Shown: positions 43,028 to 61,260, counted from the stretch's first letter. The stretch: 64,000 nt of DNA from an uncultured Candidatus Nitrosoarchaeum sp. (GCA_938049695.1 CALKVM010000002.1:3516-67515); one strand, 5' to 3'. Numbers and translations are program-made. The notes: generated from the sequence alone by a model not told the origin.

Positions 43028-43079
43028 CATTAAAACATCATCATGATTTAAATATGGAACTAGAAAAGTTGGTACATTA

Positions 43080-43388
43080 ATGAAACCTATCATATTGCTA
43101 CTTTTGGCAACAATTGCAATATCTGCAACTGGATTGACTGGTGTTGCCTATGCTCAGGAAGAATCAGCAGCAGGTAGTGCAGATTCTATGAAACTTCTAG
43201 GTGCAGGTTTAGCCTTTGGTTTGGCCGCAGCTGGAGCAGGTATAGGTTTGGGTCAAGTTGGTGCAGCAGGTCTTGCAGTAATTAGTGAAAACCCAGCATT
43301 GCAGTCAAAAGTATTCATTTTCGTAGGTATGGTTGAATCAATCGCTATCTACGGTATAGTCATGATGTTTATCATCCTTGGACAATAA
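43080..43388 (+). CDS. atpK: A-type ATP synthase proteolipid subunit K (c-subunit)
   Basis: Gly/Ala-rich hairpin (GAGLAFGLAAAGAGIGLGQVG) with the conserved Glu in VGMVESIAIYG. Confidence 0.9.
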   Translation: MKPIILLLLATIAISATGLTGVAYAQEESAAGSADSMKLLGAGLAFGLAAAGAGIGLGQVGAAGLAVISENPALQSKVFIFVGMVESIAIYGIVMMFIILGQ

Positions 43389-47043: not shown

Positions 47044-47427
47044 TTATAATGTTACTAATTTTACAGTATCCATATTTTTGTTTACTTGGAAATCTTTTGT
47101 AATAGTTGATACTCTTTCTGCATCACCATCAATTACAAATAATTCCATACATTTCTCTCCCTCAATTTTACTATGTAGATGTGTTGTAATCAAATCTTCA
47201 AAATTATGTTTTATTCCAGATACAACATGATCAAACTCATCATTATGAACAACTAAAAGAATAGCGTGAATATTTCCTGTTAATTCCAATTTTTGTTTTT
47301 CTTCTGAAACAAAAATTCTGATTCCTGCCCTTATTGCTTCAGACCTACCTGAAAAGCCCATAGTTTTTTGTAATTTATCTAATTCTGATAAAATCTCTTG
47401 ATTCAATGAAATTGAAACTATAGGCAT
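47044..47427 (-). CDS. nikR: NikR-family ribbon-helix-helix metal-responsive regulator
   Basis: N-terminal RHH (IVSISLNQEILSELDKL...GFSGRSEAIRAGIR) and a C-terminal ACT-like domain with His/Cys ligand candidates (HNDEFDH, THLHSKIEGEKC). Confidence 0.78.
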   Translation of the reverse strand: MPIVSISLNQEILSELDKLQKTMGFSGRSEAIRAGIRIFVSEEKQKLELTGNIHAILLVVHNDEFDHVVSGIKHNFEDLITTHLHSKIEGEKCMELFVIDGDAERVSTITKDFQVNKNMDTVKLVTL

Positions 47428-47431
47428 AAAT

Positions 47432-47451
47432 GATAATTGTTATTAATTATC
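47432..47451. promoter_or_regulatory. inverted repeat GATAATT-N6-AATTATC in the nikR / metal-ABC divergent intergenic region
   Basis: Read directly from the sequence, 5 nt upstream of the nikR start. AT-rich background, so chance is not excluded. Confidence 0.25.
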
Positions 47452-47487
47452 TTATAAGTTTAGCATTAAAGTTATTAACATTTTATA

Positions 47488-47503
47488 AAGTTATTAATAA
47501 CTT
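47488..47503. promoter_or_regulatory. perfect 16-bp palindrome AAGTTATTAATAACTT, candidate operator upstream of the metal ABC operon
   Basis: Perfect self-complement, 16 nt upstream of the GTG start at 47519. The half-site AAAGTTATTAA recurs at 47468-47478. Confidence 0.35.
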
Positions 47504-47518
47504 ATATCAAAATCGTGT

Positions 47519-48433
47519 GTGAATAGCCAAGTAAAACTAGCAATAATTGCAATTTCGATTACAATTCCTTTGATCTCATTTGCTGTTTTTTCAAGTGATT
47601 CAAACCAATTCAAGAAAACAAATGAATCCAAACTACAGGTTATGTCATCATTTTATCCGTTACATGAATTTTCACAAAATGTTGGTAAAGAAAAAGTTGA
47701 TGTAAAATTGTTAGTTCCAGTTGGAGTTGAACCTCATGATTGGGAACCAACAATAAAAGATGTACAACAAATGCAAAAATCTGATCTTATCATAATTAAT
47801 GGAATTGGATTTGAAAGTTGGGTTGATAAATTACATGAAATGAATTACCAAGGAGTGATAGTTGATACCAGTAATGGGATTATAAAAAATATTGAGGAAG
47901 AATCTATACATGATGAATATTCTGATGAATCTGGAGATCCCCATATTTGGTTAAATCCAGTTTTTGCAAAAATTCAAGTTCAAAATATTGCAAATGCATT
48001 TTCTAACTCAGATCCTGAGAATCGACAATATTTTCAAGAAAATGCTGCAAATTACATTGATGAATTAGATTTGCTAGATTCAAAAATTCGTAATGAATTA
48101 TTTGGGTGTAATCATGATTTTATTGCATTTCATGATTCCTTTTCATATTTTGCAGATGAATATGATCTCACACAATATACTATAATTTCTTCATATGCAC
48201 CACATACAGAACCCACTGCCAAGACTTTAGAAAATGTAATTAATAAAGCCAAACAGCTTGATGTTAAAGTTATTTTTACTGAAGAAACAGCTGATCCTAA
48301 AACTTCTCAAGTAATTGCAAACGAAATTGGAGGAAAAATACTAGTTTTATCTTCGTTAGAAATCGGTAATGATGGAACTTATATTTCTAGAATGACTGAG
48401 AATCTAAATCATCTGAAGGAGGCATTATGTTGA
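47519..48433 (+). CDS. metal ABC transporter substrate-binding protein (TroA/ZnuA cluster 9 family)
   Basis: SFYPLHEF, VEPHDWEP, DPHIWLNP and FHDSFSYFA are the metal-ligand His/Asp blocks of ZnuA/TroA-type proteins. GTG start. Confidence 0.85.
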   Translation: MNSQVKLAIIAISITIPLISFAVFSSDSNQFKKTNESKLQVMSSFYPLHEFSQNVGKEKVDVKLLVPVGVEPHDWEPTIKDVQQMQKSDLIIINGIGFESWVDKLHEMNYQGVIVDTSNGIIKNIEEESIHDEYSDESGDPHIWLNPVFAKIQVQNIANAFSNSDPENRQYFQENAANYIDELDLLDSKIRNELFGCNHDFIAFHDSFSYFADEYDLTQYTIISSYAPHTEPTAKTLENVINKAKQLDVKVIFTEETADPKTSQVIANEIGGKILVLSSLEIGNDGTYISRMTENLNHLKEALC

Positions 48434-49149
48434 AGATAGTAGAAATTGATCATCTTACAATACAATATCCTGATGTAAAAGCTATAGATGATGTTAGTTT
48501 TACGGTTAACCAAGGTGATTTTTTAGGCATAATTGGTCCTAATGGAGCAGGAAAATCCACACTTTTCGCTTCAATGCTTAGTCTTAATACAAAATACAAA
48601 GGCACAATCAAATTTTTTGGTACTGATATTAGAAAATCAAGAAACTATCTTAAAGAGATTGGTTATGTACCACAGAAACCAATCTTTGAGAAAAACTTTC
48701 CTGCAACAGTTAATGACGTTGTTAAAATGGGATTACAAAAAGAATCCGATGAAAGTAAAATTGATGAAATTCTGCAACAACTTTGGATACATGAGCTGAG
48801 TAAAAAAAGAATAGGTGAACTATCTGGTGGACAACAACAACGTGTATTTATTGCAAAAGCCTTAGTTAACAATCCTAAAGTTTTGATTTTAGATGAACCT
48901 GTTACAGGTATCGATCAACAAAGCATCGATCTTTTTTATAGTATTTTAAAAGAACTAAACTCCAAACAAAACATTACAATAATTTGGTCTTCCCATGATC
49001 TGGATGCAGTAAATAAATTAGCAAATCATGTAGCTTGTCTTAACCGAACTCTTTTCTTTCATGGAGAATCTGATGATTTCTTTAGCAATGATGATCTTGT
49101 AAAACAATATTCTGAAGCTTCTATGCAGGAACACATGCATCATCATTAG
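48427..49149 (+). CDS. metal ABC transporter ATP-binding protein (ZnuC-like) with His-rich tail
   Basis: Walker A GPNGAGKST, signature LSGGQQQR, Walker B LILDEP. C-terminus QEHMHHH. Confidence 0.9.
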   Translation: MLKIVEIDHLTIQYPDVKAIDDVSFTVNQGDFLGIIGPNGAGKSTLFASMLSLNTKYKGTIKFFGTDIRKSRNYLKEIGYVPQKPIFEKNFPATVNDVVKMGLQKESDESKIDEILQQLWIHELSKKRIGELSGGQQQRVFIAKALVNNPKVLILDEPVTGIDQQSIDLFYSILKELNSKQNITIIWSSHDLDAVNKLANHVACLNRTLFFHGESDDFFSNDDLVKQYSEASMQEHMHHH

Positions 49150-49151
49150 AA

Positions 49152-49973
49152 ATGACTTTTGAAATTTTTACTTTTAGTTTTATGCACAGAGCAATTATTT
49201 CAGGCATTGCAATTGCAATTTTATGTTCAGTAGTTGGTCTTTTCTTAGTTTTAAGACGTTATTCATTATTTGGCGACGCTATTGCTCACTCATCATTTGG
49301 TGGAATTGCATTAGGTTTGATGGTAGGAATTTATCCACTTTGGACTGCCTATGGTGTTTCAATAGTCAGTGCACTAATTATGACACGAATTAAAGATAGA
49401 TTCAACATATCTGGAGATGCCTCAATAGCAGTTCTTTTATCATCAGGAATTGCTGTAGGTCTCGTAATTATTGGATTATCTGGAGGATTTACTCTTGATA
49501 TTTTCAGCTTTCTTTTTGGAAGTATCTTGCTTGTTAGTGTTAATGATACAATTCTAATTTTATCATTGACAGGAATTATTCTGATTGTAATTCTTTTACT
49601 CTATCGCCAACTTCTTTACTCTACATTCAACGAAGAACAGGCAAAAGTCAGTGGTGTACCAGTTGAAAAAATCAATTATCTTATTGTCTTTATGGCTGGA
49701 ATTACTGTTGTAACTTCGATACAACTAGTTGGTGTTTTACTAATTTCTGCACTCTTTGTAATTCCAAATGTAACTGCAATAATGTATGGAAGGGGCTTCA
49801 AACAAACTGCAATAATTTCAATGAGTTTTTCTATATTTTCTGTGGTTGCTGGAATATTCATCTCATATATTTTTGATATAACCCCAGCAGGAACAATTGT
49901 ATTATTTGCAATTGGAATATTTGCATGTACAATGGGAATAAAGTCTGCTGGACTATTATCCAGACATAATTAA
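49152..49973 (+). CDS. metal ABC transporter permease (ZnuB-like)
   Basis: A multi-TM ABC-3 family pattern (GDAIAHSSFGGIALG). Confidence 0.9.
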   Translation: MTFEIFTFSFMHRAIISGIAIAILCSVVGLFLVLRRYSLFGDAIAHSSFGGIALGLMVGIYPLWTAYGVSIVSALIMTRIKDRFNISGDASIAVLLSSGIAVGLVIIGLSGGFTLDIFSFLFGSILLVSVNDTILILSLTGIILIVILLLYRQLLYSTFNEEQAKVSGVPVEKINYLIVFMAGITVVTSIQLVGVLLISALFVIPNVTAIMYGRGFKQTAIISMSFSIFSVVAGIFISYIFDITPAGTIVLFAIGIFACTMGIKSAGLLSRHN

Positions 49974-52733
49974 TTCATTTAATCTTCTTTTATCTTTTAG
50001 ACTTTTGACAAAAAATAATGATGTTGCAATTATACCCATTGCAATTAATGGCGATGCAATCTCGGTATATTTTAGTTGAAAAATATCTGTATCTGGTATT
50101 TGAGATATTGTTATGGGAATCTCTGTAGTCTTTATCATTGCTAATTTGTTTCCTTGTTGTTCAACAAACCAAACATTGTCTTTATCATCAGATGTTAAAA
50201 ATTGTACAAACGATGTTGCAGTTGGAATTGGAACCTCAATTAAATTTTTGTTATCTGGATCATATGCAGCAATTTTGTCTACTGTATGTTCTGCAATCCA
50301 AATATTTCCATATCTATCAAATGACATTCCATTAGGTGATGCTTCTTGATTTGGTACTGAAATTCTTTCAAATGTTTCAAGAATTGGACTAAATTTGGTA
50401 ATTGCTATTCCTGTATGTTCTGCAATCCACAAATTCCCTTTATCGTCAAAAACCAGAGCCTCAGGTGATGCAAGAGGCTTTTCAGGCACAAATTCTGTTA
50501 TATCATTATTTTTTGGATTGATAAATCCTATTTTACCAGAGGCTGATTCAGTAAACCAAATTTTTCCTTCATCATCAATTGTCAAGGCAAACGGCAGTGA
50601 TTCTCTTGCAAGCATCTTAATTTCTTCAAACGTATCTGATTCTGGTTGATATTTTAAAATCATACCTTTGTTGGTAATTGAAATCCAAATATTTCCATCA
50701 AAATCTGCTTGTATGAAAGTAGGAATATTATCCGAAATCATAGGTACTATTTTTGGTAAACTTTTTGTGGTAATTTGTTTATTACTTGGATCAAAGTACC
50801 CGATCTGATTTCTTGGTGTATCAGTAAACCAAATTTTTCCTTGATTATCTTGTGTAAGAAATATGGTGGTTAATCCGTCAAATGAATATGATGTAAATTC
50901 TTGCGTATCAAGTGAGAATTGCCATAATTTAGGAGAAGATGGATCACTTATCCAAATTGAATTTTTTCCATCATACAAAGGGTAAAGAGGTTTTGAAGAT
51001 TCAGGTAATTCGTATTCTATAATTTCTGTTTTCAGATCTGTTAATCTTGGTTTAACTAGTAAATTCATGAAAATTGATTCGTTTGCACTCTGATTTCTTT
51101 GAGTCTCTATTTCCACTTGCCACTGACCCGAAAATCCAAATGTTAAATCTCCTTGAAATTCAACTGGTTTACCTATCTCCTGTTTGATGATTTTCATGGG
51201 GACTTCTATTGGGGAAATATTTCTTTGTGGATTGGAGATCTTTACTTTGATTTCATTTGAATCATTCAACGGATTGTTTTCCAGATCGCTAACTTTGACT
51301 AAAATTGTATTTGCACCGCTAGAAAATGGTGTTATTTTAATATCAAATTTTGTATTTTCTGAAAACTCTATTGTACTGAAATCGTATGAAATTTTTTGCG
51401 CATCAGCTTGTTTTATTTCTCCAGCAGGCAAAGTTCCATTAGCAAGCAGTGCAACAACCCCTAAAAGAGCAATTCCTAATACAACATCGAATTTCAATGA
51501 TCTTTTTAGTTTCTTGTATACTGCAATGGATCCTGATTGTAGATCTTTTTCAGCCTTTTTTTGAATCTTAAACTGGAAATACCCTCCTAATCCAACCATG
51601 ATTGCTGCAATAGAAATTTTTACAAGAATTAATTTCCCATATACTGACTCGGTGATCAAGCCTACATCACTTTCCAAAAACCACATGAGTGTTGGTCCAG
51701 TAATTATCACAACTCCTACTGCAACGATAAACATAATTGAAAATCTTGGAATTAAAACAAGTGTCATCCTCTCACGTTTTGCTTCTTCCAATTGCGAAAA
51801 TGTAGGTAGTAACGTAAATACAAAATAAATTATGCCTCCGATCCACACTGCAGCCACAAAATTATGAATATAATCTAAAATAATTGCAGAAGTCTCTCCA
51901 CTGGCTGCACCATGTCCAATCAAACTTGAAGTTCCAATTAATCCAAGTGTAACTGCAAGCATTGGAATTTTATTTTTTATAGATAGATTCTTTTTTCTAT
52001 CCATTCCAAACCACAAACCAAGAAGAATAATTGTAATTATCATTCTGATTAGCCATATATTTCCAAAATCAGTTTTAATTACTTCAAAAACTGAAGTTTC
52101 TAATCTTACGGTTTGTACTACTAACATCAAAATATTTGATACAAAAATCAGCACTAATCCAATACCTGTAATTGTCATGAATTTTCCATGATGGACAGAT
52201 TCTAGTTTGTCTAATTCTTTTCTGATTAACTGTTTACTTTGAGTTCCCCAGATTAGTATTGAAGCAATTACAACACCTAACACAATGGTTTGACCTACAA
52301 GTCCTGGAAATCTTGATCCTGCTTCAGGCAAAAACACAAGTTCACTTGGTTGTAATTGCTGTTCAGGAACTATTACATCCCCTACTCCAAAATTAAATGC
52401 ACTAGGTACAAGATGTCCGTCAACTTTTGAGAGAACATTACTTGTTACTGTATAGACTCCGCTCTCTAATGGAGGAGTAGTGACTACTAGAGATTTTTCA
52501 TCTTCAAAATATTTTGTATCTTTGTTATCTATCTGTTCTCCATTATTATCAAATACTTTGAGAGAACTAAAATTAACATCAATTGGTTCTGAAAAATAAA
52601 CTATGACTTGTGTTAATCCCTCAGCTGCATTTGCTGATGAATTTGGACTAGTTTCCATAGTAAATGGATGAGCCGCAGCATATGGAATAGACATTGATAA
52701 AATTAATAGTGAAATAATTAAAAATTTCCTCAT
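49956..52733 (-). CDS. CopC-CopD fusion protein extended by an Ig-like region, a seven-bladed beta-propeller and a C-terminal TM anchor
   Basis: Signal peptide, then AA|HPFTMETSP...VIVYFSEPI...GVYTVTSNVLSKVDGH (CopC). About 8 TM helices follow (CopD). Seven repeats of the type KIWFTDTPRNQIGYFDP / NIWIAEHTVDKIAAYDP resemble streptogramin-lyase or NHL-like blades. Terminal TM: IASPLIAMGIIATSLFFV. Confidence 0.8.
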   Translation of the reverse strand: MRKFLIISLLILSMSIPYAAAHPFTMETSPNSSANAAEGLTQVIVYFSEPIDVNFSSLKVFDNNGEQIDNKDTKYFEDEKSLVVTTPPLESGVYTVTSNVLSKVDGHLVPSAFNFGVGDVIVPEQQLQPSELVFLPEAGSRFPGLVGQTIVLGVVIASILIWGTQSKQLIRKELDKLESVHHGKFMTITGIGLVLIFVSNILMLVVQTVRLETSVFEVIKTDFGNIWLIRMIITIILLGLWFGMDRKKNLSIKNKIPMLAVTLGLIGTSSLIGHGAASGETSAIILDYIHNFVAAVWIGGIIYFVFTLLPTFSQLEEAKRERMTLVLIPRFSIMFIVAVGVVIITGPTLMWFLESDVGLITESVYGKLILVKISIAAIMVGLGGYFQFKIQKKAEKDLQSGSIAVYKKLKRSLKFDVVLGIALLGVVALLANGTLPAGEIKQADAQKISYDFSTIEFSENTKFDIKITPFSSGANTILVKVSDLENNPLNDSNEIKVKISNPQRNISPIEVPMKIIKQEIGKPVEFQGDLTFGFSGQWQVEIETQRNQSANESIFMNLLVKPRLTDLKTEIIEYELPESSKPLYPLYDGKNSIWISDPSSPKLWQFSLDTQEFTSYSFDGLTTIFLTQDNQGKIWFTDTPRNQIGYFDPSNKQITTKSLPKIVPMISDNIPTFIQADFDGNIWISITNKGMILKYQPESDTFEEIKMLARESLPFALTIDDEGKIWFTESASGKIGFINPKNNDITEFVPEKPLASPEALVFDDKGNLWIAEHTGIAITKFSPILETFERISVPNQEASPNGMSFDRYGNIWIAEHTVDKIAAYDPDNKNLIEVPIPTATSFVQFLTSDDKDNVWFVEQQGNKLAMIKTTEIPITISQIPDTDIFQLKYTEIASPLIAMGIIATSLFFVKSLKDKRRLNELIMSG

Positions 52734-52836
52734 TTACTTTTCAGGTTATCTTTGACAATTTAAACAGTTTTCATTTACTTTGAAGTTTGTACCAATCTAC
52801 GTAAAGATAATAACATGTTACAATAAAGTAACAGTC

Positions 52837-53463
52837 ATGAAAGTTATTACTTTGGGATTAATTGGATTATTATTTTCTGTTGGATTTGTATCACAATCTT
52901 TTGCTCATACAACAGTTGAGGTAGAACCTTACAAAATTGAAGTAGGTTGGGGACTAGAACCTCCAGTTGTAAGTATAAGAAATGATTTTGTTTTTAAAAT
53001 AACTGAATCTGGTGATACTCCAAATTCGTACACAGGAGTTACGAATGCATTCAAAAATATAGAAGTTACAGCCATGTTTGGAGGAGTCTCAAAGAAAATT
53101 GATATCCACTCAGATCCCAAACTAGGATATTATTTTTCACCTGTAATCCCCACAAAGACTGGAACCTATATTGTGGATTTGAAAGGAGAAATTAATGGAA
53201 TTCCAATAGATGTGCAAATTCCAGTCGAAGATGTAGAAAGTACTGCAGTATTGGATTTTCCACAAACTAGTGGCTCTTCATCAGATCAAGATGTGATTTC
53301 ACTCAAAAATGCAATTTCATCACTACAAAGAGATGTCTCATCCATGAAAGATGGTTCAGAAAATGTTAATGGTGGTGCAGCATATGACTTTGCAGTTTTT
53401 GGATTGTCTATTGCAGCAGCTGCAATAATCTTGGCAATAGTTGCTTTAATAAAAAGAAAATAG
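52837..53463 (+). CDS. secreted protein with predicted mature N-terminal His and C-terminal TM anchor (possible YcnI/DUF1775-like copper-binding fold)
   Basis: Signal peptide MKVITLGLIGLLFSVGFVSQSFA|HTTVEVEP, a beta-rich body, and the C-terminal anchor FAVFGLSIAAAAIILAIVALIKRK. The family call is tentative. Confidence 0.5.
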   Translation: MKVITLGLIGLLFSVGFVSQSFAHTTVEVEPYKIEVGWGLEPPVVSIRNDFVFKITESGDTPNSYTGVTNAFKNIEVTAMFGGVSKKIDIHSDPKLGYYFSPVIPTKTGTYIVDLKGEINGIPIDVQIPVEDVESTAVLDFPQTSGSSSDQDVISLKNAISSLQRDVSSMKDGSENVNGGAAYDFAVFGLSIAAAAIILAIVALIKRK

Positions 53464-53477
53464 AAAAAAGTTAATTC

Positions 53478-54344
53478 CTAAAATCTTGGAATTACTTTAG
53501 ATTTTGCAGTAACAGCAACAATGCTTATGATTGAAACGGCTAGTATCATCATTGCAACTGTTCCAAATTCTGGAACAATGTTTGAAAATACTACTTGTTC
53601 ACCTATAGGTCCTGTCTTTGGTTCATCTACTCCAAAACCTTGGAAGGTAATGGTGACCTCTACTGGATCTGATGAGCTAAGTGGTGCTGTTTCATGCATA
53701 CCTTCTCCCTCATGGCCATGTGCAGCAATATCATTTAGTACTTCTGCACCATTTTGTGTTACCATGACGTCATAGTTTGCATGTTCTGAATCTTCAAAGT
53801 CAACTGTGATTTCCATTTTTTCACCTGAAGTTGGTGCGGAAGTCATAATTGAAACTTTTGTGCCATCAGATAACATTCCAGTTGCAGTTGCATCTTCTGT
53901 ATGCATCTCTTCACCGGTATGTTCTTCATCTTCATGTTCTTCTGTTCCTGCTTCTTGTACTACAATTAATCCTGTCATCCATGGATGAACCATTGAAAAG
54001 TAGTGATATTCGCCTGGCTCTTCAAATTTGAATGAAAAAGAACTTCCCGGCTCTACTAAACCACTATCAAAGAATCCATCAGGACCAGTCTCAGCTGTAC
54101 CACTTGTTATGGTAGTTGAGGAAGTGCCATCATTTGTCCATATCACTTCACCGCCTACATCCACAGTTGCCTCATGTGGAATATAGCACTCATTTGTCTC
54201 CTCACATCCTTGTGTATCAGAACCTGGTGCAATACTGACATTAACTTCTAAATGATCAGCATAAGCATTGCCAAATCCTATCGACATTACCATAACAGCA
54301 AGTAACTGTATTGTCAATACTGTATACGTTGATTGTTTTTTCAT
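53478..54344 (-). CDS. cupredoxin-like surface protein lacking two type-1 copper ligands, with acidic/His linker, Ig-like domain and PEFG-CTERM
   Basis: Plastocyanin-like block GCEETNECYIPHEATVDVGGEVIWTNDGTSSTTITSG...GEYHYFSMVHPWMTG. Linker EEHEDEEHTGEEMHTED. Ig-like domain with NYDVMVTQNGAEV. C-terminal PEFGTVAMMILAVSIISIVAV at 53478-53573. Confidence 0.7.
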   Translation of the reverse strand: MKKQSTYTVLTIQLLAVMVMSIGFGNAYADHLEVNVSIAPGSDTQGCEETNECYIPHEATVDVGGEVIWTNDGTSSTTITSGTAETGPDGFFDSGLVEPGSSFSFKFEEPGEYHYFSMVHPWMTGLIVVQEAGTEEHEDEEHTGEEMHTEDATATGMLSDGTKVSIMTSAPTSGEKMEITVDFEDSEHANYDVMVTQNGAEVLNDIAAHGHEGEGMHETAPLSSSDPVEVTITFQGFGVDEPKTGPIGEQVVFSNIVPEFGTVAMMILAVSIISIVAVTAKSKVIPRF

Positions 54345-54377
54345 TAGTACAGTTTTATGAGAATGAGATTAAATGAT

Positions 54378-54402
54378 CTGGTACATTCTTGAAATGTACC
54401 AG
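54378..54402. promoter_or_regulatory. candidate operator, perfect palindrome CTGGTACATT-CTTGA-AATGTACCAG
   Basis: 10-bp perfect inverted repeat arms, 34-58 nt upstream of the start at 54344 (minus strand). It abuts a TATA-like TTTAAT about 24-29 nt upstream of the ATG. Confidence 0.6.
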
Positions 54403-54459
54403 AATTAATCAAGATGTTTTAACAAGAAACTTTGATTTTTAACAGAATAAGAATAATGT

Positions 54460-54680
54460 GGATGAGAAATATTAGGACCAATGAAGATTAGCTCTTTTAC
54501 CAAAATGACTCGCTTTTCTCATCCACTATGGTAAAGCCTGTACTTTGTAAATTATACAATAATTCTGTAAATAAAACAAAATTGGTACATTCGACAAATA
54601 CACCATTAAATTTTGTACAGTAATTCTTGGCAGATAAAAATTTAACGAAATATGTAATGTGGTTTTTTATTATGACAAGT
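54460..54680 (+). repeat. copy A of a duplicated intergenic module (conserved stem, shared blocks, operator, degenerate 5' gene stub)
   Basis: Shares ordered blocks with 56675-56950: GATGAGAAA ... AAATGACTC ... TTTCTCATC, ACTATGGT(A/C)AAG, AAATTGGTACATTCGA, AATG(G)TGG(G)TTTTT and ATTA(A)TGACAAG. Confidence 0.6.
54582..54606. promoter_or_regulatory. candidate operator TTGGTACATTCGACAAATACACCAT
   Basis: Matches TGGTAC-N11-GTACCA with one mismatch in the right arm. Confidence 0.45.
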
Positions 54681-54786
54681 AATCTTATGTTGTTATTGAT
54701 TTTGAAATGAGATTGATTGGGCTAGAATAAATCAATAGAAATTGCAAGTTGAATACTAAATAATTTATGAAATTCAATTGTATTTA

Positions 54787-54957
54787 CTACAAATTCTTAT
54801 TTGTTATTTTTAATCCTTCTTTGAGAGTAAGATTAACAACATAAGAAAAACTAATGTTCTTTTTTGATTTTTTAATCATATCTGCCTGGATTGCTCTAAG
54901 TTGATCTTGAATTTCCTTATCCACAATGATAGATAATCTACTAATTTCAGAATTCAT
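54787..54957 (-). CDS. 56-aa ribbon-helix-helix (CopG/Arc/MetJ-like) DNA-binding protein
   Basis: Hand-translated: MNSEISRLSIIVDKEIQDQLRAIQADMIKKSKKNISFSYVVNLTLKEGLKITNKNL. The pattern is beta-strand (RLSIIV), helix, helix. It lies 32 nt downstream of the DsrE-like gene on the same strand and is below the track cutoff. Confidence 0.5.
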   Translation of the reverse strand: MNSEISRLSIIVDKEIQDQLRAIQADMIKKSKKNISFSYVVNLTLKEGLKITNKNL

Positions 54958-54989
54958 TTTTCATCTCCATAAAAAAAGAAAATAATGGA

Positions 54990-55439
54990 CTAGTAGTCCA
55001 GTATTGTTGCATCTTCATCGATGAGTCTTTGCATTTTAGGCATGTTTGGATGTGAATCAATTTCAATTCCAGGCAACATATCAGCAGGTTTTAATCCTGC
55101 CATGCTGATACAATGCTCACAAGCAATCACTCGTCCTCCTGAATCTAGAAACTGTTGAAGTTCTTGATTTGTTGCCTTTAGGCTATCTGAAGGCTGATTT
55201 ACTCCGATCTTTACTCCATCAACATCAAGCATTATTGCTACGTTTTTGCCTTGAGCAAGCATTGCTTGCGAATGCTCAACGCCCATCATAGCACGATGAT
55301 TATCATCGCTAGTGATGTGAACCATTACTGTTCTAGTGTATGCATCAACTTGTTGTTGACTTGGCATGGCTGCTATTGCAACTAGAAAAACTGCTGCAAA
55401 GACAGGTATCGCTATTGAATATTTCAGTGCTGATTTCAT
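54990..55439 (-). CDS. DsrE/DsrF-like family protein with N-terminal signal/anchor (predicted extracytoplasmic)
   Basis: Hydrophobic N-terminus IAIPVFAAVFLVAIAAM. DsrE-like core: VMVHITSDD...NVAIMLDVDGV...GGRVIACEHCISMAGL. Confidence 0.6.
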   Translation of the reverse strand: MKSALKYSIAIPVFAAVFLVAIAAMPSQQQVDAYTRTVMVHITSDDNHRAMMGVEHSQAMLAQGKNVAIMLDVDGVKIGVNQPSDSLKATNQELQQFLDSGGRVIACEHCISMAGLKPADMLPGIEIDSHPNMPKMQRLIDEDATILDY

Positions 55440-55473
55440 TGATAATATTATGTGAATTTAACATAAAATGAAA

Positions 55474-55498
55474 TTGGTGACTTCGTAAAATGTACCAG
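55474..55498. promoter_or_regulatory. candidate operator TTGGTGACTTCGTAAAATGTACCAG
   Basis: Lies 35-59 nt upstream of the start at 55439 (minus strand), the same spacing as the site at 54378. It is 3 nt beyond the stop of the wHTH regulator gene. Confidence 0.55.
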
Positions 55499-55500
55499 TG

Positions 55501-56067
55501 TTATAATGCCAAGAAAATATCTTCAGAGTGTTCAAATTTCTCATCTAATAATTTTGAGAATTCCTTTTGAAAAGTGTGTTTTAGCAATTTCATGTCTTTA
55601 ATTTTGTAACATTGTTTATTGTCTTTTTCACATTTTTCAATGACACCTTCCTTAATAAGCTCAGAAAGGTTCCAAGAAATGGTTCCAGGACTTTTCTTTA
55701 CTTTAAGTGTCAATTCTTTAAAATCAGGATTTCCTTCAACTAGAATTTGAAAGATGATCTTCTTTTTTGTAGGTTTTCTGAGATTTCGTATTATGGAATA
55801 CTCTGAATCTGTCACGTCAAGTGGATAATACCGTCTATGTCTAGTTTGTTTTTGAGATTTTACAACACCTTGTCTTTCTAGTTTTGCAAGATAGTGAGTA
55901 ATTACACCATTTGCTAGTTTGGTTTTATCCATAAGTCCTTTAATGTGAATGCCAGGATTATTTTGAATTGTTTTTAGAATTATGTTAGATCTGTCTAATT
56001 GAGTTTTTTGTGATTTAACAGTATTGACGGATTTTATATTTTGCTTTATTTTCATGTATGCATTCAT
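55501..56067 (-). CDS. tandem winged-helix transcription regulator (paralog of 58746-59246)
   Basis: Two wHTH modules: TIQNNPGIHIKGLMDKTKLANGVITHYLAKLERQGVVKSQKQTRHRRYYP and a second ending ELIKEGVIEKCEKDNKQCYKI. Confidence 0.75.
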   Translation of the reverse strand: MNAYMKIKQNIKSVNTVKSQKTQLDRSNIILKTIQNNPGIHIKGLMDKTKLANGVITHYLAKLERQGVVKSQKQTRHRRYYPLDVTDSEYSIIRNLRKPTKKKIIFQILVEGNPDFKELTLKVKKSPGTISWNLSELIKEGVIEKCEKDNKQCYKIKDMKLLKHTFQKEFSKLLDEKFEHSEDIFLAL

Positions 56068-56183
56068 TTATGATAGAACGATGTCCCTGATGAGCTTTGT
56101 GTTTATTCGTAGTTACATATTTTGGTCATCTTGAAAAATTTAACGTGAGGGTATTGGTTCTCAAAATCTGTTTTATTAAAAAA

Positions 56184-56501
56184 TTATGGTTGGATTAATG
56201 CTGCTCTTTGTTGCGTCTTTTCAAAATATCCGCTAATGATTTTGTGAGGAACATAATATGTTACATCTACAACATCACCAACTTGACTACTACATTTTTG
56301 TATTACAGGCATTGAGATGGTAGGCGTATTAATTACACAGCCTCTTTCTGTAATTGCCACTACTTTTCCTTGTTCTGTAATTTGTACAGGAAACCAATGC
56401 CATATAGGAGCAATTGTAGTTATTATCAGTAGAGCCAAAGCTGTCAGTACTATTCCAACGTACCATTTCCAAGGCATTTTCTTTTCTTTTTGTATGCTCA
56501 T
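56184..56501 (-). CDS. small membrane-anchored protein with two Cys in the external domain
   Basis: One TM helix (WYVGIVLTALALLIITTIAPIW), then a roughly 70-aa domain containing GCVINTP...QKCSSQ. Confidence 0.5.
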   Translation of the reverse strand: MSIQKEKKMPWKWYVGIVLTALALLIITTIAPIWHWFPVQITEQGKVVAITERGCVINTPTISMPVIQKCSSQVGDVVDVTYYVPHKIISGYFEKTQQRAALIQP

Positions 56502-56779
56502 TTTTGTTCAGGAGATGTTATGATGAATTAACTAAAAAGGAAATTGGTGATTTTATCAAACAAAAATAACCTAGAATATGAATATTGCAAAAATGGAATA
56601 GATTTTTTTAATCTACAGTAGATAGAATTACAAATCATAAAAAATATTGAATGAAAAATTTAGATAAAAAAATAGATGAGAAACAATAAATCAGGTTATG
56701 AATAAACAAATGACTCCGTTAGGTTTCTCATCGACTATGGTCAAGTACAATAATTTAGAAGAACAGGATTAAAATGAAA

Positions 56780-56804
56780 TTGGTACATTCGAAGTTCATA
56801 CCAG
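56780..56804. promoter_or_regulatory. candidate operator TTGGTACATTCGAAGTTCATACCAG
   Basis: Matches TGGTAC-N11-GTACCA with one right-arm mismatch. Lies in the divergent region between 56501 (minus) and 56954 (plus). Confidence 0.5.
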
Positions 56805-56825
56805 TACAATCATGAAATGTACCAG
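56801..56825. promoter_or_regulatory. candidate operator CCAGTACAATCATGAAATGTACCAG, overlapping the previous site by 4 nt
   Basis: The right arm is perfect and the left arm is degenerate (CAGTAC). The two sites are tandem. Confidence 0.4.
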
Positions 56826-56953
56826 TTCCTTAAAATAAAATTATTGATTGAAATGAAGTATGTTTGAAAAATCAACTCTCCCAAAAGAATCACAACTTAA
56901 AAAGAAATGGTGGGTTTTTCTTAGTAGAAAAAAGCAGAATTAATGACAAGACG

Positions 56954-57331
56954 ATGAAAAAATTAGATAAAAAATACTTGTTGTTTACAGGATTGGTTCT
57001 AATCACAATCGGATTTTTGACTTTTGCCTTTATGTTTAATGATAATGGAAAATATGATAGCTTTGCCATGTGTCTGAAGCAAAAAGACATCAAAATGTAT
57101 GGTGCTTCCTGGTGTCCACACTGTCAAGAACAAAAGAAAATGTTCGAATCATCTCAGAAATATCTCAACTATGTAGAGTGTTCAACAATTGATGGAACAG
57201 GGCAAATGGATGTTTGTAAAAATAATCAGATATCTTCCTATCCCATTTGGGAGTTATCTAATGGGACAAAACTTGTAGGAACATATTCATTTGAAAAGCT
57301 ATCTGAGATCTCAGGTTGTGTTCTTGATTAA
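56954..57331 (+). CDS. membrane-anchored thioredoxin-like protein (CPHC), similar to the Trx domain fused to bacterial VKOR
   Basis: TM helix LLFTGLVLITIGFLTFAF, then MYGASWCPHCQEQKKMF...YVEC...ISSYPIWEL...SGC. The ATG at 56954 is preferred over the TTG at 56864 because 56864-56950 is conserved only at nucleotide level with non-coding copy A. Confidence 0.72.
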   Translation: MKKLDKKYLLFTGLVLITIGFLTFAFMFNDNGKYDSFAMCLKQKDIKMYGASWCPHCQEQKKMFESSQKYLNYVECSTIDGTGQMDVCKNNQISSYPIWELSNGTKLVGTYSFEKLSEISGCVLD

Positions 57332-57517
57332 ATTCTACTTTATAATTATATCTAATGTAAGATTTCTAAACGCAAAAAAATAATCATTCAAGTACTTCAA
57401 AAATAATGACGGTATGATGTATTTTCCTGAATAAATCTGAAATATATCATTTTTAATGATAAAGATAGATTATTTGAATAAAGATTAATCTCTGATAGAT
57501 AATTACAAGTAAAAAAA

Positions 57518-58816
57518 TTATACCACAATAATTTTTCGCTTGACAAGATTTTCAATCATCTTTAGAAAATCATCATCTGAAATTTTATCTTCGGACCACC
57601 AACCTGCTGTTGTTTTGATCCATGATGGTAATTTCCAATTTGATTGAGCAGTTATTTCTTTTGATGTTACTACTACAATTCCTTTTTTAAACAAAAAGTC
57701 AATTCCTTCAAGAAATTCTGAGTCAGATATTTGATCTGTAGACCACCAATTTGCGTTTGTTTTTACCCATTGCGGAATTTTAGAGGTTTCAGGAGGCAAC
57801 CCTTTTTCAAAACCAGTAATCTTTAGAATTCCTTGTGACGTTGGCCCTACAGTAAATGCAACATGCCAAAACCCGATATCATCTATACTTTGAATAAATT
57901 TTACAGGTTTATCATTTAGAGTGACATTGAATTTTTCTTTATCTGAAATTTGTGGAAATTCAAAGTTTGCATAGGTCTCAAGTGGGTAACTATTGTATCC
58001 GCGTATTGTAAGAGTTGTTCCTTCTTCATTGAATTTAGCAGCAGAATACCACGCACCTGAATCATATCTAAAATCAAAATTACCTCCATTTTTCTTTGCA
58101 GTAATTGGAACAACAGTAGTATCCAAAGGAGCAAAACAGCTATAGTAAAAAACATCATCAGTTATTGAAGGATCAGGATACATTGAAAATTCTAGAATTT
58201 CACCAGGCTCTATTTTGTCAATATATTCAATATTGTGAACAATATCGAGTACTTTTTCATGACCATGAGCTATTGCAAGAATTTTTGGGTTGAAGATGGT
58301 TTGATTTCCATTATTATGAATTCTTCCTGTAACATGACCGTCATCATGTTTGACTAATGTTTTATCATAAAGAATCTCAATTGATATTGGATCTTTTTGT
58401 GTTTTTACAAATTTGAGTTCAGCTGTAAGTAAGATAGGAGTATCTCCTGTAACTTCAGGAAATTTTGTTTTAAATGGGATATCTGTGTTTGGTGGAATTG
58501 GAACATGATATACTGTCTTGGTAAATGTATTGTCTCCATCAATTACAGAAACTAAAATGGTTGGAATTACAGCATAGTCATTTTGGTTTTTTACATTGCC
58601 TCCAACTGTATATACGCCTTCATAATCAAAATATCCAATATATTGTTCTGGTGGTATCAAAACCTCGGCAAATGTAAATTGAGAAATAAGTAATGATGTA
58701 AACATGAATCCAATTAGAATAAATACTATTTTTGATTGTAATAGACTAGAAAGCGTTGATAATATCTTCGAATCCAGATGTGGGTTTTTCAAGTAAGCTT
58801 GGTCGATAGTCTTCAA
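57518..58816 (-). CDS. membrane-anchored or secreted beta-rich protein ending in two Trp-rich modules of about 35 aa
   Basis: N-terminal TM helix IVFILIGFMFTSLLISQF. C-terminus IPQWVKTNANWWSTDQISDSEFLEGIDFLFKKGIV and LPSWIKTTAGWWSEDKISDDDFLKMIENLVKRKII (57518-57778). The 5' end overlaps the upstream regulator gene by 71 nt. Confidence 0.65.
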   Translation of the reverse strand: MKTIDQAYLKNPHLDSKILSTLSSLLQSKIVFILIGFMFTSLLISQFTFAEVLIPPEQYIGYFDYEGVYTVGGNVKNQNDYAVIPTILVSVIDGDNTFTKTVYHVPIPPNTDIPFKTKFPEVTGDTPILLTAELKFVKTQKDPISIEILYDKTLVKHDDGHVTGRIHNNGNQTIFNPKILAIAHGHEKVLDIVHNIEYIDKIEPGEILEFSMYPDPSITDDVFYYSCFAPLDTTVVPITAKKNGGNFDFRYDSGAWYSAAKFNEEGTTLTIRGYNSYPLETYANFEFPQISDKEKFNVTLNDKPVKFIQSIDDIGFWHVAFTVGPTSQGILKITGFEKGLPPETSKIPQWVKTNANWWSTDQISDSEFLEGIDFLFKKGIVVVTSKEITAQSNWKLPSWIKTTAGWWSEDKISDDDFLKMIENLVKRKIIVV

Positions 58817-59246
58817 TTAATTGATCTATTACCTTTCTTGTTTTAATATAATATCTCTTTCTTAGATTTTCAAGTCTTACTTCAACTTGTTCATCTTGGA
58901 CTAGTTGTGATAGATATAGAGAAACTGTGGAAGGTGATTTTCCTACCACGTCAACTAGTTCACTAAACTCTAGTCCGTCTTGTTTTATGAGAGCTAATAA
59001 CAGATCTCTTGGGGTTTGTCTACGTAATGCTTTGATAGTTTTTGATTCATCTTCGGTAATTCCTGGTGGATAAAATCTGGATTGTCTTGGACCACGCACT
59101 ACTTTGATTATACCATGTTTTTCTAATTTACCAAGATAGTGACTAAGAACACCATTTTTTAATCCAGAAGAACGCATTATTTCTCTGAATTGAATTCCTG
59201 GATTCTGATCTATGATTTGCTGTAATTGTGTATTTCTATCAGTCAT
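58746..59246 (-). CDS. tandem winged-helix transcription regulator (paralog of 55501-56067)
   Basis: IIDQNPGIQFREIMRSSGLKNGVLSHYLGKLEKHGIIKVVRGPRQSRFYP plus a second wHTH, LLLALIKQDGLEFSELVDVVGKSPSTVSLYLSQLVQDEQVEV. Confidence 0.75.
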   Translation of the reverse strand: MTDRNTQLQQIIDQNPGIQFREIMRSSGLKNGVLSHYLGKLEKHGIIKVVRGPRQSRFYPPGITEDESKTIKALRRQTPRDLLLALIKQDGLEFSELVDVVGKSPSTVSLYLSQLVQDEQVEVRLENLRKRYYIKTRKVIDQLIEDYRPSLLEKPTSGFEDIINAF

Positions 59247-59631
59247 TTCTAAACACTCCCAATGCTAACAATCCCAGTGTACTAAATGTCAATAAATGTC
59301 CTATCTCTAATAGAGACATATAACCTAAATCATAAAGTGTAGGCCATGTGGCATCAATTACTAAAACTGATTCAGCTACAATAAAAGTTACAAAAGCAAG
59401 TGTACTAAGTAAAAGTCTTTTTGTTTTTAATTTAGAATATGCCAATATTGCAAGAATTGTAATGAATACTGCAAGTGTAATTCCAGCAATATGCAAAAAG
59501 ATGTGTGCTAAATGAAACCCATGTAAGAGATGAGGCATTATTACGGGAATTGCCAATATTGCCACTACACCTATAACTACAACAGAGAATAACGTTGACT
59601 TACGTTCAATAAGACTCCGAGGTCTAAACAA
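59239..59631 (-). CDS. four-TM membrane protein with a histidine ladder
   Basis: PHLLHGFHLAHIFLH places H34, H37, H40, H43 and H47 on one helical face between TM1 and TM2. The stop overlaps the regulator start by 8 nt. Confidence 0.6.
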   Translation of the reverse strand: MFRPRSLIERKSTLFSVVVIGVVAILAIPVIMPHLLHGFHLAHIFLHIAGITLAVFITILAILAYSKLKTKRLLLSTLAFVTFIVAESVLVIDATWPTLYDLGYMSLLEIGHLLTFSTLGLLALGVFRND

Positions 59632-59694
59632 ATCACAGAAAATGTTGTTTTTACAGATTTAAACAGACTGGTTCATACTTCGAATTAGATGCGA

Positions 59695-61260
59695 TCAGAT
59701 ATGAAGAATTTTATTTTGTATTAAATATCGTATTCCCTGAACAAAAGTTTCATCGTCAATTTGTCCATTTGACCACCACTTTGCATTGTTTTTAATCCAA
59801 GATGGAATTTCATTTGTTTCGGTGCCTGTACCTTGAGAAGTTGGAGGAATATTCATTATTTTCTCTTTTATCAAATATTGAATTCCTTTAACAAATGAAC
59901 TATCATCAATCTGTCCATCTGACCACCAAGCTGCATTGGTTCGTATCCATTTAGGTATTGAAATACCATTATTTTCATGTGATATGGGATTAATTATAAT
60001 TGGAATAGATGTTTTTGCAAGATCATTATCTCCAAGATTTAGAAAATTCAGATGTACAATTCCAGTTAGATCATCAGGTATTGTAAATTCTGCTGTGTTA
60101 TGTTTTTCTTTAGAATCACTACTAATTCCACTTTGTTTGAAAATTATTTTATCATTTTGAGTAATTGAAAAATCATAATTTACTGCTATGGGTCTATTTT
60201 TTAGAAAAATATCAGTAACATCAAAATAGATTGTTGCTTTGGAATTTGATTGTAAATTTTTTGGTTCCCAAGATGTAATAATTCGAAATTGTCCATTTTC
60301 AGTTACTGAACTTAATTGAATATCATCTGAATTTGGTTTGATAAGAAAATTCATTCCATTTAGGTTTGAATTATGTTTGTAAATATTCCATAATTCTTTT
60401 TGACTAATAATAAAATGAACTACTCTTCCATCAGAAAAAAAATCATCGATTGTTACAATATCGTCAGATAATTTGATTTCGTTTACATACACAGAAAATC
60501 CAGATACCAGTAGATCTCCAAATGTTTTTGGAATTATTAATTCTTCATGGATTACAGAAGTTTGATTAATGTTATTAGCACTCCATTCAAAAGGCATGGA
60601 AAAAGTGATTTCTTTGGATTCAATATCATAGTGAAAATTCTTTATTTCGTCATAGTATGTAACAACATTAATTATTTGTGGGCCAAAAACAGAATGATTA
60701 ATTTCATGTTTAGATGTTTGTGCAATTGAAATTCCGGCATCGAAAGTCAGTGGCACATCTAATTTCTTTGAATAACCATCGGCTGTAAGAATACGAATAT
60801 CAAACTTGTATAGTCCACCCTCACTTAGTTTTGGACCCTTTACATTGACCATTCTATTTTCTAATCCAAGTAATGAACCAAAGAAATCTTTCTTGTTCTC
60901 TTCTTGAACTTGAATTGTGTCAGTATTTTCGGATATGAAATTAAAAACTATAATTCCATTATGACTTTGAAATTCTTTTTCAAAAAGAAATTGTTCGCCA
61001 CGACTAGATTTTATCAAAAATGTGACATCTCTAAGTGTAATTTTTGAATTAAAATCAATTAGTGAAATTGATATTTGCTGATCATCATTTTTATCTGGAT
61101 TATTTGGAGATGATGAAACTTCTAGACTTACTTGTTTTCCATACAGATCAACCGGTGGAAATATTTCACTTCCTACACCATGACCATAAACATCTACAAG
61201 TGTTAAAGAAGAAATAGAAATTAAAAACAAAATAAGCAAATGTAATATTTTTCCTTGCAA
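59695..61260 (-). CDS. secreted modular surface protein (paralog family) ending in two Trp-rich modules
   Basis: Signal peptide ending VYG|HGVG. Family blocks: GGLYKFDIRI, TYYDEIKNFHYD...FSMPFEW and HEELIIP. Ig-like domain with NYDFSITQNDKII. C-terminal modules IPKWIRTNAAWWSDGQIDDSSFVKGIQYLIKEKIM and IPSWIKNNAKWWSNGQIDDETFVQGIRYLIQNKIL (59695-59958). Confidence 0.7.
   Translation of the reverse strand: MQGKILHLLILFLISISSLTLVDVYGHGVGSEIFPPVDLYGKQVSLEVSSSPNNPDKNDDQQISISLIDFNSKITLRDVTFLIKSSRGEQFLFEKEFQSHNGIIVFNFISENTDTIQVQEENKKDFFGSLLGLENRMVNVKGPKLSEGGLYKFDIRILTADGYSKKLDVPLTFDAGISIAQTSKHEINHSVFGPQIINVVTYYDEIKNFHYDIESKEITFSMPFEWSANNINQTSVIHEELIIPKTFGDLLVSGFSVYVNEIKLSDDIVTIDDFFSDGRVVHFIISQKELWNIYKHNSNLNGMNFLIKPNSDDIQLSSVTENGQFRIITSWEPKNLQSNSKATIYFDVTDIFLKNRPIAVNYDFSITQNDKIIFKQSGISSDSKEKHNTAEFTIPDDLTGIVHLNFLNLGDNDLAKTSIPIIINPISHENNGISIPKWIRTNAAWWSDGQIDDSSFVKGIQYLIKEKIMNIPPTSQGTGTETNEIPSWIKNNAKWWSNGQIDDETFVQGIRYLIQNKILHI

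Follow-up and report, generated by a model that had tools for sequence, protein, structure and literature searches.

Much of global nitrification is carried out by ammonia-oxidizing archaea, whose dependence on copper enzymes is unusually strong. The regulation of their copper genes has been described as an open question (Reyes et al. 2020, PMC7785015). In that study an 18-nucleotide (nt) MEME motif, TTCSGSMTTTGWACYANT, was reported upstream of genes of Nitrososphaera viennensis that are induced by copper limitation; its 12 published instances occupy positions -35 to -70 relative to the start codon, in either orientation and sometimes doubled, and its genes include copC/D and the operon of NVIE_014290, a membrane protein, and NVIE_014280, an "ArsR" regulator (PMC7785015). 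NVIE_014280 is listed in the supplementary tables of a later paper as arCOG02611 and is assigned there to the same orthologue family as Nmar_1281 of Nitrosopumilus maritimus; NVIE_014290 has been named 'putative cation channel protein' in a later N. viennensis paper, and the NVIE_014290-014280 region is also induced in N. viennensis biofilms. Here we describe a 25-bp palindrome, TGGTAC-N11-GTACCA, that recurs in a stretch of 64,000 nt (hereafter the window) from an uncultured Candidatus Nitrosoarchaeum sp. (GCA_938049695.1, CALKVM010000002.1:3516-67515). The palindrome is a conserved promoter cis-element of ammonia-oxidizing archaea, and it looks like the Nitrosopumilaceae (marine) form of the N. 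viennensis copper-limitation element.

Five copies of the form CTGGTACATT-N5-AATGTACCAG are located at 54378, 54582, 55474, 56780 and 56801 of the window, which has a GC content of 32 % and belongs, by its genes and closest relatives, to the Nitrosopumilaceae. A first-pass annotation of this DNA had proposed that these palindromes mark a local regulon, and all five sequences were found exactly where it had placed them. It had also named a similar density in coding or random regions genome-wide as a finding that would speak against the proposal; when up to two mismatches were allowed, TGGTAC-N11-GTACCA matched 7 times in 64 kb against 0.79 expected, none of 100 shuffles reached 7 matches, and 5 of the 7 fell inside 54378-56825. 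With up to three mismatches there were 31 matches in the window against 12 +/- 3 expected. For the extended arm TGGTACATT, 10 occurrences were counted where 0.75 would be expected, and six of them form arms of the five sites.

A symmetric weight matrix built from the five sites yielded no further site above shuffle level in the window; because a test with a matrix made from its own sites is circular, an asymmetric matrix was trained solely on sites from other genomes and then run on the window. This external matrix recovered the sites at 55474 (36.5 bits), 54582 (28.8 bits), 56780 (23.9 bits) and 54378 (18.9 bits), the best shuffle reaching 11.9 bits; the site at 56801 scored just 8 bits with it, yet contains one perfect TGGTACATT arm. 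No further full site was detected elsewhere in the 64-kb window with either matrix, in line with the earlier impression that the other intergenic regions lacked the full motif. A TGGTACATT half-site at 43070 and three copies within coding regions were judged to be chance occurrences. The former (43070-43092), a perfect arm, precedes by 1 nt the ATG (43080) of a gene whose small hydrophobic product resembles, by sequence alone, an ATP-synthase c subunit; it is probably a chance match because it has no second arm.

Of the five sites only s3 is assigned to a strand. Site s1 (54378-54402) is a perfect palindrome, CTGGTACATTCTTGAAATGTACCAG, 33 nt upstream of the ATG of a cupredoxin-like gene on the minus strand, with a TATA-like CATTTAAT between the two. 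Site s3 (55474-55498, minus strand), which reads CTGGTACATTTTACGAAGTCACCAA, lies 2 nt past the stop codon of the gene for regulator 1, with 34 nt between its end and the ATG of a DsrE-like gene, so that the near-identical distances of these two sites from their start codons, claimed earlier, hold at gaps of 33 and 34 nt. Site s2, TTGGTACATTCGACAAATACACCAT (54582-54606), is situated in the 440-nt spacer between the cupredoxin-like gene and a gene of ribbon-helix-helix (RHH) type; no annotated gene comes after it, and on the minus strand it is followed by the TATA-like TTTTGTTTTATTTA and then by a hairpin element. N. maritimus has a second site in the spacer equivalent to that of s2. Sites s4, TTGGTACATTCGAAGTTCATACCAG (56780-56804), and s5, CCAGTACAATCATGAAATGTACCAG (56801-56825), overlap by 4 nt in a 21-bp step, and on the plus strand s5 is followed by the TATA-like TTAAAATAAAAT; the distance from the end of s5 is 38 nt to an in-frame TTG and 128 nt to the ATG of a thioredoxin-like gene. 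A comparable tandem pair with a 25-bp step precedes a DoxX gene in a Nitrosotenuis locus (L020). The distance from site end to start codon is 33-42 nt, the sites span roughly -34 to -67, and both orientations occur.

Phylogenetic footprinting, which had been proposed as a check along with the sites themselves, was carried out in about 25 related loci, drawn from contigs with homologues of regulator 1 and from scans of species-representative genomes (10 loci) and metagenome contigs (12 loci). The palindrome was found conserved upstream of TATA boxes, and the placement of the sites just upstream of these boxes, also claimed at the outset, was borne out. The regulator gene is followed by the DsrE-like gene in 16 distinct loci, which represent Nitrosopumilus (including N. 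maritimus SCM1, Nmar_1276/1277), two Nitrosarchaeum paralogues, several Nitrosotenuis and a Nitrosopumilaceae genome of 56 % GC; a full site is present in 16/16. In every one of these loci the site begins 0-6 nt past the stop codon of regulator 1 (the two overlap in SCM1), a T-rich TATA-like box comes directly after it, and 34 nt (33 nt in one locus) separate its end from the DsrE ATG. Across 14 DsrE promoters the distal arm TGGTACATT does not vary, and over all 16 it shows only one C-to-G change (L023); the centre reads yGAyrAA, and the proximal arm is fixed at CCAA only. Mean pairwise identity at the DsrE promoters is 0.93 for the distal arm and 0.54 for the spacer. In nine loci with another gene, or none, after the regulator, the distal TGGTACA arm has decayed, leaving only centre, proximal arm and TATA box, and locus L037 retains a four-codon DsrE relic together with a half-degraded site. 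Decay of the arm where DsrE has been lost is the pattern expected of a functional promoter element tied to its target gene.

Full sites also precede other genes at comparable distances. Counterparts of s1 stand 36 nt before cupredoxin orthologues in three loci (L012/L033/L039) and before Nmar_1273 of N. maritimus; sites at a spacing of 33-36 nt are found before Nmar_1280 and the regulator 2-type gene Nmar_1281, and, in L021 and L008, before genes for exported proteins. The N. maritimus sites number five within about 6 kb.

A second, shorter class of site consists of the centre plus the proximal half. What had been noted as a weak half-site copy at 56544 proved to be real and not weak: at 56544-56568 the minus strand reads TTTGATAAAATCACCAA and then TTTCCTTTTTAG, scores 18.0 bits with a centre-plus-proximal-half matrix, and ends 42 nt before the ATG of the gene for a 105-residue membrane protein. 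Promoters of this 105-residue family carry TTCGAyrAAnnnACCAr immediately before TTTCCTTTTTAG, about 42 nt from the ATG, in at least 10 loci; that of L017 is the only examined promoter of the family without a short-class site. A 17-nt matrix for the class (pattern TTyGA-N4-TGnACCAr), trained on other loci, gave 16 matches above 12 bits in the window against 1.8 in shuffles. One short-class site, TTCGAAGTATGAACCAG plus GTTTAAAT (59668-59692, minus strand; 15.0 bits), lies 36 nt before the start of the gene for a 130-residue protein and constitutes the promoter of the operon 130-residue protein / regulator 2 / 395-residue protein. The same operon occurs in two Thaumarchaeota of 62-63 % GC, in which the 130-residue protein is 55-58 % identical and is encoded with regulator 2, the 395-residue protein being present in one of them; their operon promoters carry TTTGACGCGTGAACCAC+ATTTAAAT and TTTGAGTGATGAACCAG+GCTTAAAG. 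A probable member of the class, TTTGAAGTTTGTACCAA plus TTTATGTAAAAAT (52771-52795, plus strand), lies 37 nt from the ATG of a CopC/CopD gene and 41 nt from the ATG of a divergent gene for a 208-residue protein. Its 17-nt match at 52779 scores 12.2 bits and is borderline by score alone; the site is considered probable because its promoter position and its association with CopC/D match the N. viennensis report. The proposal of a local regulon is therefore supported by the footprinting, but the limits first given for it, 54378-56825, were too narrow (sites at 56544, 59668 and 52779).

Further arrangements were seen in one of the two Thaumarchaeota of 62-63 % GC and in a sibling strain. In the one of these two Thaumarchaeota that has 63 % GC (L042, 2057-2160), an AT-rich island before the adjacent cupredoxin homologue contains three TTTGTACCA repeats in steps of 18-19 nt, with alternating TGGTA/TACCA, a layout unlike that of the 25-bp sites of the window. 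A sibling-strain contig (L002, 7900-9500) diverges from the window right after the cupredoxin gene and has a third copy of the operon for the 130-residue protein and the regulator, to which a separate short-class site, GATAGTTCTACCAG+TTTCTTTAAAT, belongs; the genomic region that holds the cluster is variable.

The sites were compared with the N. viennensis motif at the level of the published consensus only. In this comparison the 59668 element, TTCGAAGTATGAACCAGT, agrees with TTCSGSMTTTGWACYANT at 14/18 positions, TTCGCCGTTTGTACCA of L042 at 14/16, and the reverse complement of the full-site consensus, TTCGTCGAATGTACCAG, at 12/16 with identical spacing. The layout TTC-N6-TG(T/A)ACCA corresponds to the centre plus one arm of the window sites, and the position at -35 to -70, the use of either strand and the occurrence of repeats (compare the tandem s4/s5) are shared. 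So are the gene classes, namely CopC/D, exported unknowns, blue-copper proteins and DsbD/thiol proteins, and the location before an operon of a membrane protein and an arCOG02611 regulator, which in the window extends from 59631 to 58746. Sites of the window are found at three of the genes where the N. viennensis motif would place them: CopC/D (52779, with the borderline score), the cupredoxin (s1) and the 130-residue protein / regulator 2 operon (59668). The two elements also differ; the N. viennensis motif is a non-palindromic 18-nt sequence whose binder was guessed to be an 'ArsR' protein, whereas the element described here is palindromic, extends over 25 bp, includes a second arm, TGGTACATT, that does not vary, and comes with a separate short class; it is accompanied by a Nitrosopumilaceae-specific regulator 1 fused to the DsrE promoter. 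The palindrome looks like a new and fuller member of an operator family of which a single earlier example, from a relative in soil, has been seen. The first-pass annotation had been aware of no description of the motif; it is not wholly new, the 18-nt TTCSGSMTTTGWACYANT, with its corresponding layout and position, having been published (PMC7785015). The CopR/CopT system of the Sulfolobales is an archaeal copper-homeostasis regulator of cop genes, but its protein combines a helix-turn-helix with TRASH, it responds to copper excess, and it has no sequence relation to the window motif.

Two paralogous regulators with 32 % identity to each other are encoded on the minus strand: regulator 1 (55501-56067), the orthologue of Nmar_1276, with an invariant C-terminal H-[SA]-EDIFLAL tail, and regulator 2 (58746-59246), whose closest N. 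maritimus counterpart is Nmar_1281. Each had been proposed to contain two winged helix-turn-helix (wHTH) domains, and these were recovered as Pfam matches in both proteins and in an AlphaFold2 model of regulator 1. PF24266 (HTH_HVO_0163_N) matched at 51.7 and 43.5 bits (cut-off 31), with a second HTH_24/HTH_5 match in each regulator. Nmar_1276 has been listed as arCOG02611 / COG3398, and both regulators belong to the uncharacterised arCOG02611 family (HVO_0163-like two-HTH, COG3398); no functional literature on this family was found, nor any main-text mention of arCOG02611, COG3398 or Nmar_1273-1278, and HVO_0163 came up a single time, in an acetylome study. The AlphaFold2 model (mean predicted local distance difference test score, pLDDT, 85.7) consists of a long N-terminal helix, the two wHTH domains and a C-terminal helix. 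Helix 3 of the first wHTH reads NGVITHYLAKLE and NGVLSHYLGKLE in the two regulators, and that of the second SPGTISWNLSEL and SPSTVSLYLSQL; these predicted recognition helices are near-identical, and both regulators may read the motif family. A PDB sequence search and Foldseek yielded no solved structure matching the whole regulator chain; the best template-modelling (TM) score normalised to the query was about 0.3, and the tandem winged-helix proteins RPC62, RPC34 and ScpB matched loosely.

The regulators were set against the two better-known families that they partly resemble. Their C-terminal wHTH is similar in sequence and fold to ArsR/SmtB proteins (CzrA, SmtB, BigR, SqrR), which also bind imperfect inverted-repeat operators near promoters of metal or sulfur genes. 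ArsR/SmtB proteins, however, are homodimers whose chains of about 100 residues hold a single wHTH and whose metal or Cys sites are defined, whereas the present regulators have two wHTH per chain; the ArsR model NF033788 scored 37.7 and 34.4 bits against a cut-off of 55 and covered just the C-terminal domain of these proteins of 166-188 residues, and none of the ArsR-type metal/thiol sites (alpha3N, alpha5, Cys pair) was found conserved upon comparison of orthologues. Moreover, abundant metal typically releases ArsR repressors from DNA, whereas the related genes of N. viennensis respond to a shortage of metal by induction. The N-terminal wHTH passes the Pfam MarR cut-off (33.6 against 24.6 bits), and the PDB sequence matches are MarR-like; MarR proteins, in contrast, have one wHTH per chain and dimerise via N- and C-terminal helices. 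No whole-chain fold match of the regulator 1 model to MarR structures was obtained, the root-mean-square deviation being about 19-22 Å over the aligned length.

Two peculiarities of the regulator genes were noted in passing. The regulator 1 open reading frame (ORF) encodes 188 residues against 165 in most orthologues, and the codon aligned with their start is TTA, which indicates an N-terminal extension of about 23 residues in this lineage and in P0001/P0002; the extension was modelled, with low confidence, within the long helix. In a Thaumarchaeon of 62 % GC (L043, 10001-12024), an IS605-type TnpB/OrfB insertion splits the regulator 2 orthologue into residues 1-123 and 130-166.

We reasoned that the palindrome is the operator of the local arCOG02611 regulators, through which an exported copper/thiol regulon would be controlled with copper as the signal, and we regard this as probable, if some way from assured; the existence of the sites, their non-randomness, their fixed position and their conservation across genera and GC contents are demonstrated, and the binding protein, the signal and the sign of regulation are what we infer from them. 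The operator would have the consensus yTGGTACATT-yGAyr-AAnnnACCAr, with the core TGGTACATT-N5-AATGTACCA, and would be positioned at about -59 to -35, directly upstream of the transcription factor B recognition element (BRE) and TATA box of short-leader or leaderless promoters; very short leaders are suggested by sites that abut BRE/TATA at a fixed distance from the ATG. Candidate binders are regulator 1, regulator 2, or both. Regulator 1 is favoured by the fusion of its stop codon to the DsrE site in every lineage examined, and regulator 2 by the presence of a site at the promoter of genes of its own type in three lineages (the window, N. maritimus and the high-GC genomes). As for the earlier suggestion that one monomer might reach across both arms, the asymmetric arms at the DsrE promoters would fit two non-equivalent DNA-binding domains, a dimer being equally possible.

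The proposed regulon would comprise the PEFG cupredoxin, the DsrE-like and RHH-like proteins, the 105-residue Cys-containing membrane protein, the thioredoxin-like protein, CopC/D with the 208-residue protein, and the regulator 2 operon, the full 25-bp and short-class sites together tying these extracytoplasmic proteins into a single regulon. Copper limitation would be the likely inducing signal, by analogy with the N. viennensis motif and its orthologous regulator operon. In planktonic and biofilm cultures of N. maritimus the genes of the cluster show low expression (about 1-86 transcripts per million), which is compatible with an inducible regulon; a hydrogen peroxide proteome supplement contained no entries for these genes. 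A bound factor would be expected to recruit TATA-binding protein (TBP) and transcription factor B (TFB); activation is favoured because the site is just distal to BRE/TATA, the alternative being repression by occlusion of the BRE. An archaeal factor bound at the upstream edge of BRE/TATA usually gives activation, as is the case for Ptr2, TrmBL1, SurR and TFB-RF1, whose sites likewise abut this edge although the proteins belong to unrelated families.

Several observations weigh against the proposed operator and its copper signal. The evidence is divided between regulator 1, with its fusion to the DsrE site, and regulator 2, with the site at its own promoter, and in the window the gene for regulator 1 is not itself preceded by a site. 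All related loci were retrieved by way of a regulator homologue, and the co-occurrence of regulator and site is to that extent built in. The match to the N. viennensis motif is one of consensus only, and N. viennensis and N. maritimus have been reported to differ in their response to copper limitation. A thiol, sulfur or oxidative signal would account just as well for neighbours such as DsrE, rhodanese, thioredoxin and DoxX. Finally, no Cys/His cluster conserved in both regulator families was found when orthologues were compared, which makes direct metal sensing by the factor doubtful; the two Cys of regulator 1 (EKC...C) are not kept among its orthologues, and its sole invariant His, that of the C-terminal tail, is absent from the regulator 2 family.

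The lack of such a cluster in the factors, together with the five invariant His of the 130-residue protein, suggests that a membrane partner may sense the metal. This leads to a more speculative version of the operator model, one that we think worth stating yet unlikely to be correct in full: a small membrane protein and a tandem-wHTH factor would form a previously unrecognised signalling pair in which the membrane partner senses copper or thiol state, and such pairs would grade their shared operators. Pair A would be the 130-residue protein with regulator 2, their translation being coupled, and pair B the 105-residue two-Cys protein with regulator 1. The partner that bears a metal-binding face would sense extracytoplasmic or membrane copper (or thiol state) and act via the tail of the factor, HSEDIFLAL or SGFEDIIxxF, and the two paralogous pairs would read the full 25-bp and the 17-nt sites at different strengths. 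If true, signalling pairs would provide graded control of copper acquisition in ammonia-oxidizing archaea.

Among the rivals to an operator of the arCOG02611 regulators, the one that fares best is that an unlinked transcription factor, for example a global metal/redox regulator, binds the palindrome, and that the arCOG02611 genes are merely co-regulated targets. The regulator 2-type operon is itself a target, so that adjacency could mean mere membership of the regulon; the loci were all ascertained via a regulator homologue, and NikR and other regulators are encoded nearby. Nonetheless, the fusion of the regulator 1 stop codon to the site is kept across genera and GC contents, autoregulated and locally acting factors are the usual pattern, and in about 600 kb of related DNA the motif was met only beside these regulators. 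We consider an unlinked binder unlikely.

RHH proteins commonly bind inverted or tandem repeats and autoregulate, and the palindrome might accordingly be the autoregulatory operator of the RHH-like protein (54787-54957, minus strand), with the wHTH regulators acting elsewhere. This 56-residue protein, encoded downstream of the DsrE-like gene, has no Pfam or NCBIfam match and is RHH-like by sequence pattern only; its gene follows DsrE in 9 loci but is absent from L008, L019, L023, L035 and N. maritimus. Full sites are present in those four loci without a nearby RHH homologue, as they are before the cupredoxin genes of L012/L033/L039, and N. maritimus has its five sites with no RHH homologue within +/-10 kb. 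An RHH operator is on these grounds distinctly improbable.

The palindrome could also act as RNA, whether in a leader structure or, behind the regulator gene, as a hairpin for termination or processing, given that s1 could form a 10-bp stem and that s3 comes directly after a stop codon. When the arms were examined for pairing, however, 71.0 % of cells were paired against a shuffled-column mean of 71.7 %, 29 % were unpaired, and covariation was 0.054 against 0.058; one arm is invariant while the other drifts, and the sites, lying upstream of TATA boxes, would mostly not be transcribed with their targets. An Rfam scan of 53000-60000 (E<=1) returned only a meaningless rli43 match. The absence of compensatory change, the position upstream of TATA and the lack of an Rfam match indicate that the element works as DNA, and the RNA hairpin, whose arms do not covary, was rejected as very improbable. 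The least credible explanation is that the copies are functionless relics of a local duplication or a small mobile element: the flanks of s2 and s4 do share about 130 nt of similarity and part of the start of the thioredoxin-like gene recurs at 56651, but position and spacing are kept in genomes of 32-63 % GC while the flanks diverge, and the site decays specifically upon loss of the target gene; the footprinting in effect disproves this reading.

The local repeat thereby leads to a testable regulator-operator hypothesis that extends to cultured N. maritimus SCM1, in which the candidates are the regulators Nmar_1276 and Nmar_1281 and the target promoters those of Nmar_1273, 1277, 1278, 1280 and 1281. 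It links a marine element to the only published copper-limitation promoter motif of the group, and the palindrome would be the first candidate DNA target for the arCOG02611 two-winged-helix family.

The genes assigned to the cluster on first reading, a PEFG-CTERM cupredoxin, DsrE, a thioredoxin-like protein and the two tandem-wHTH regulators, held up in Pfam and NCBIfam searches. The target of s1 (53478-54344, minus strand) encodes a cupredoxin-like surface protein with a PEFG-CTERM sorting signal, and the conserved target directly after regulator 1 (54990-55439, minus strand) a DsrE-like protein with a signal peptide. The 105-residue membrane protein (56184-56501, minus strand), the target of the short-class site at 56544, has two Cys and is arCOG08680-like; its gene adjoins regulator 1 in most loci. 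Downstream of s4/s5 a membrane-anchored thioredoxin-like protein (CPHC) is encoded on the plus strand (56954-57331).

The first gene of the regulator 2 operon (59239-59631, minus strand) encodes the 130-residue His-rich membrane protein, for which no Pfam family was found; its five invariant His (HGxHxAHIxLHIAG, itself invariant, plus H112) are kept in genomes from 32 % to 63 % GC, and its stop codon overlaps the regulator 2 start. It is a candidate metal sensor or channel. A 395-residue exported protein (57518-58705, minus strand) begins 40 nt after regulator 2 and is probably encoded by the third gene of the operon, because there is no room for a promoter of its own and L043 has the same gene order.

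The CopC/CopD fusion protein (49956-52733, minus strand; Pfam CopC and CopD; ATG 52733) is a probable member of the regulon via the site at 52771-52795, and the divergent gene on the plus strand (52837-53463; ATG 52837) encodes a 208-residue exported protein. Directly beside CopC/D, at 47044-49973, a NikR-like regulator gene is divergent from a ZnuA/ABC/permease transporter operon; the whole stretch from 47 to 60 kb is a metal-homeostasis neighbourhood. In L012/L033/L039 the neighbourhood includes a CopA-type ATPase, a YHS/TRASH protein, and glutaredoxin-like, DsbD-like and cation-efflux proteins.

Structured elements were observed beside some of the sites. Two paralogous elements of about 90-105 nt lie on the minus strand next to s2 (54440-54545) and s4 (56655-56750); each consists of the site, a TATA-like box, 38-49 nt, and then ACCATAGTSGATGAGAA...GAGTCATTT...TTTCTCATC, which forms a stem of 10-12 bp. 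Folding gave z-scores of -1.9 and -3.1, copy B has a T-run at its end, and neither has an Rfam match; these elements could be small RNAs of the regulon. The small ORFs within them (16 and 11 codons; 9 and 9 on the other strand) were not called genes because the frame is not conserved. In the Nitrosotenuis locus L020, GACCATAGTGGAGTCATTTTTT stands beside the tandem sites.

The leader between s5 and the thioredoxin-like ATG contains AAGAAATGGTGGGTTTTTCTTAGTAGAAAAAAGCAG (56905-56945) and is partly conserved in N. maritimus, where AAGAAATGGTGGGTTTTTCTTAGTAGAAAAAAGCAG is kept downstream of the second site (L041, 8555-8600) with no thioredoxin gene after it; the sequence may represent a leader element or a short transcript. 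A second copy of the initial 21 nt of the thioredoxin-like gene, ATGAAAAAATTAGATAAAAAA (56954-56974), lies 303 nt upstream, at 56651-56671, with 95 % identity, and looks like a relic of local duplication.

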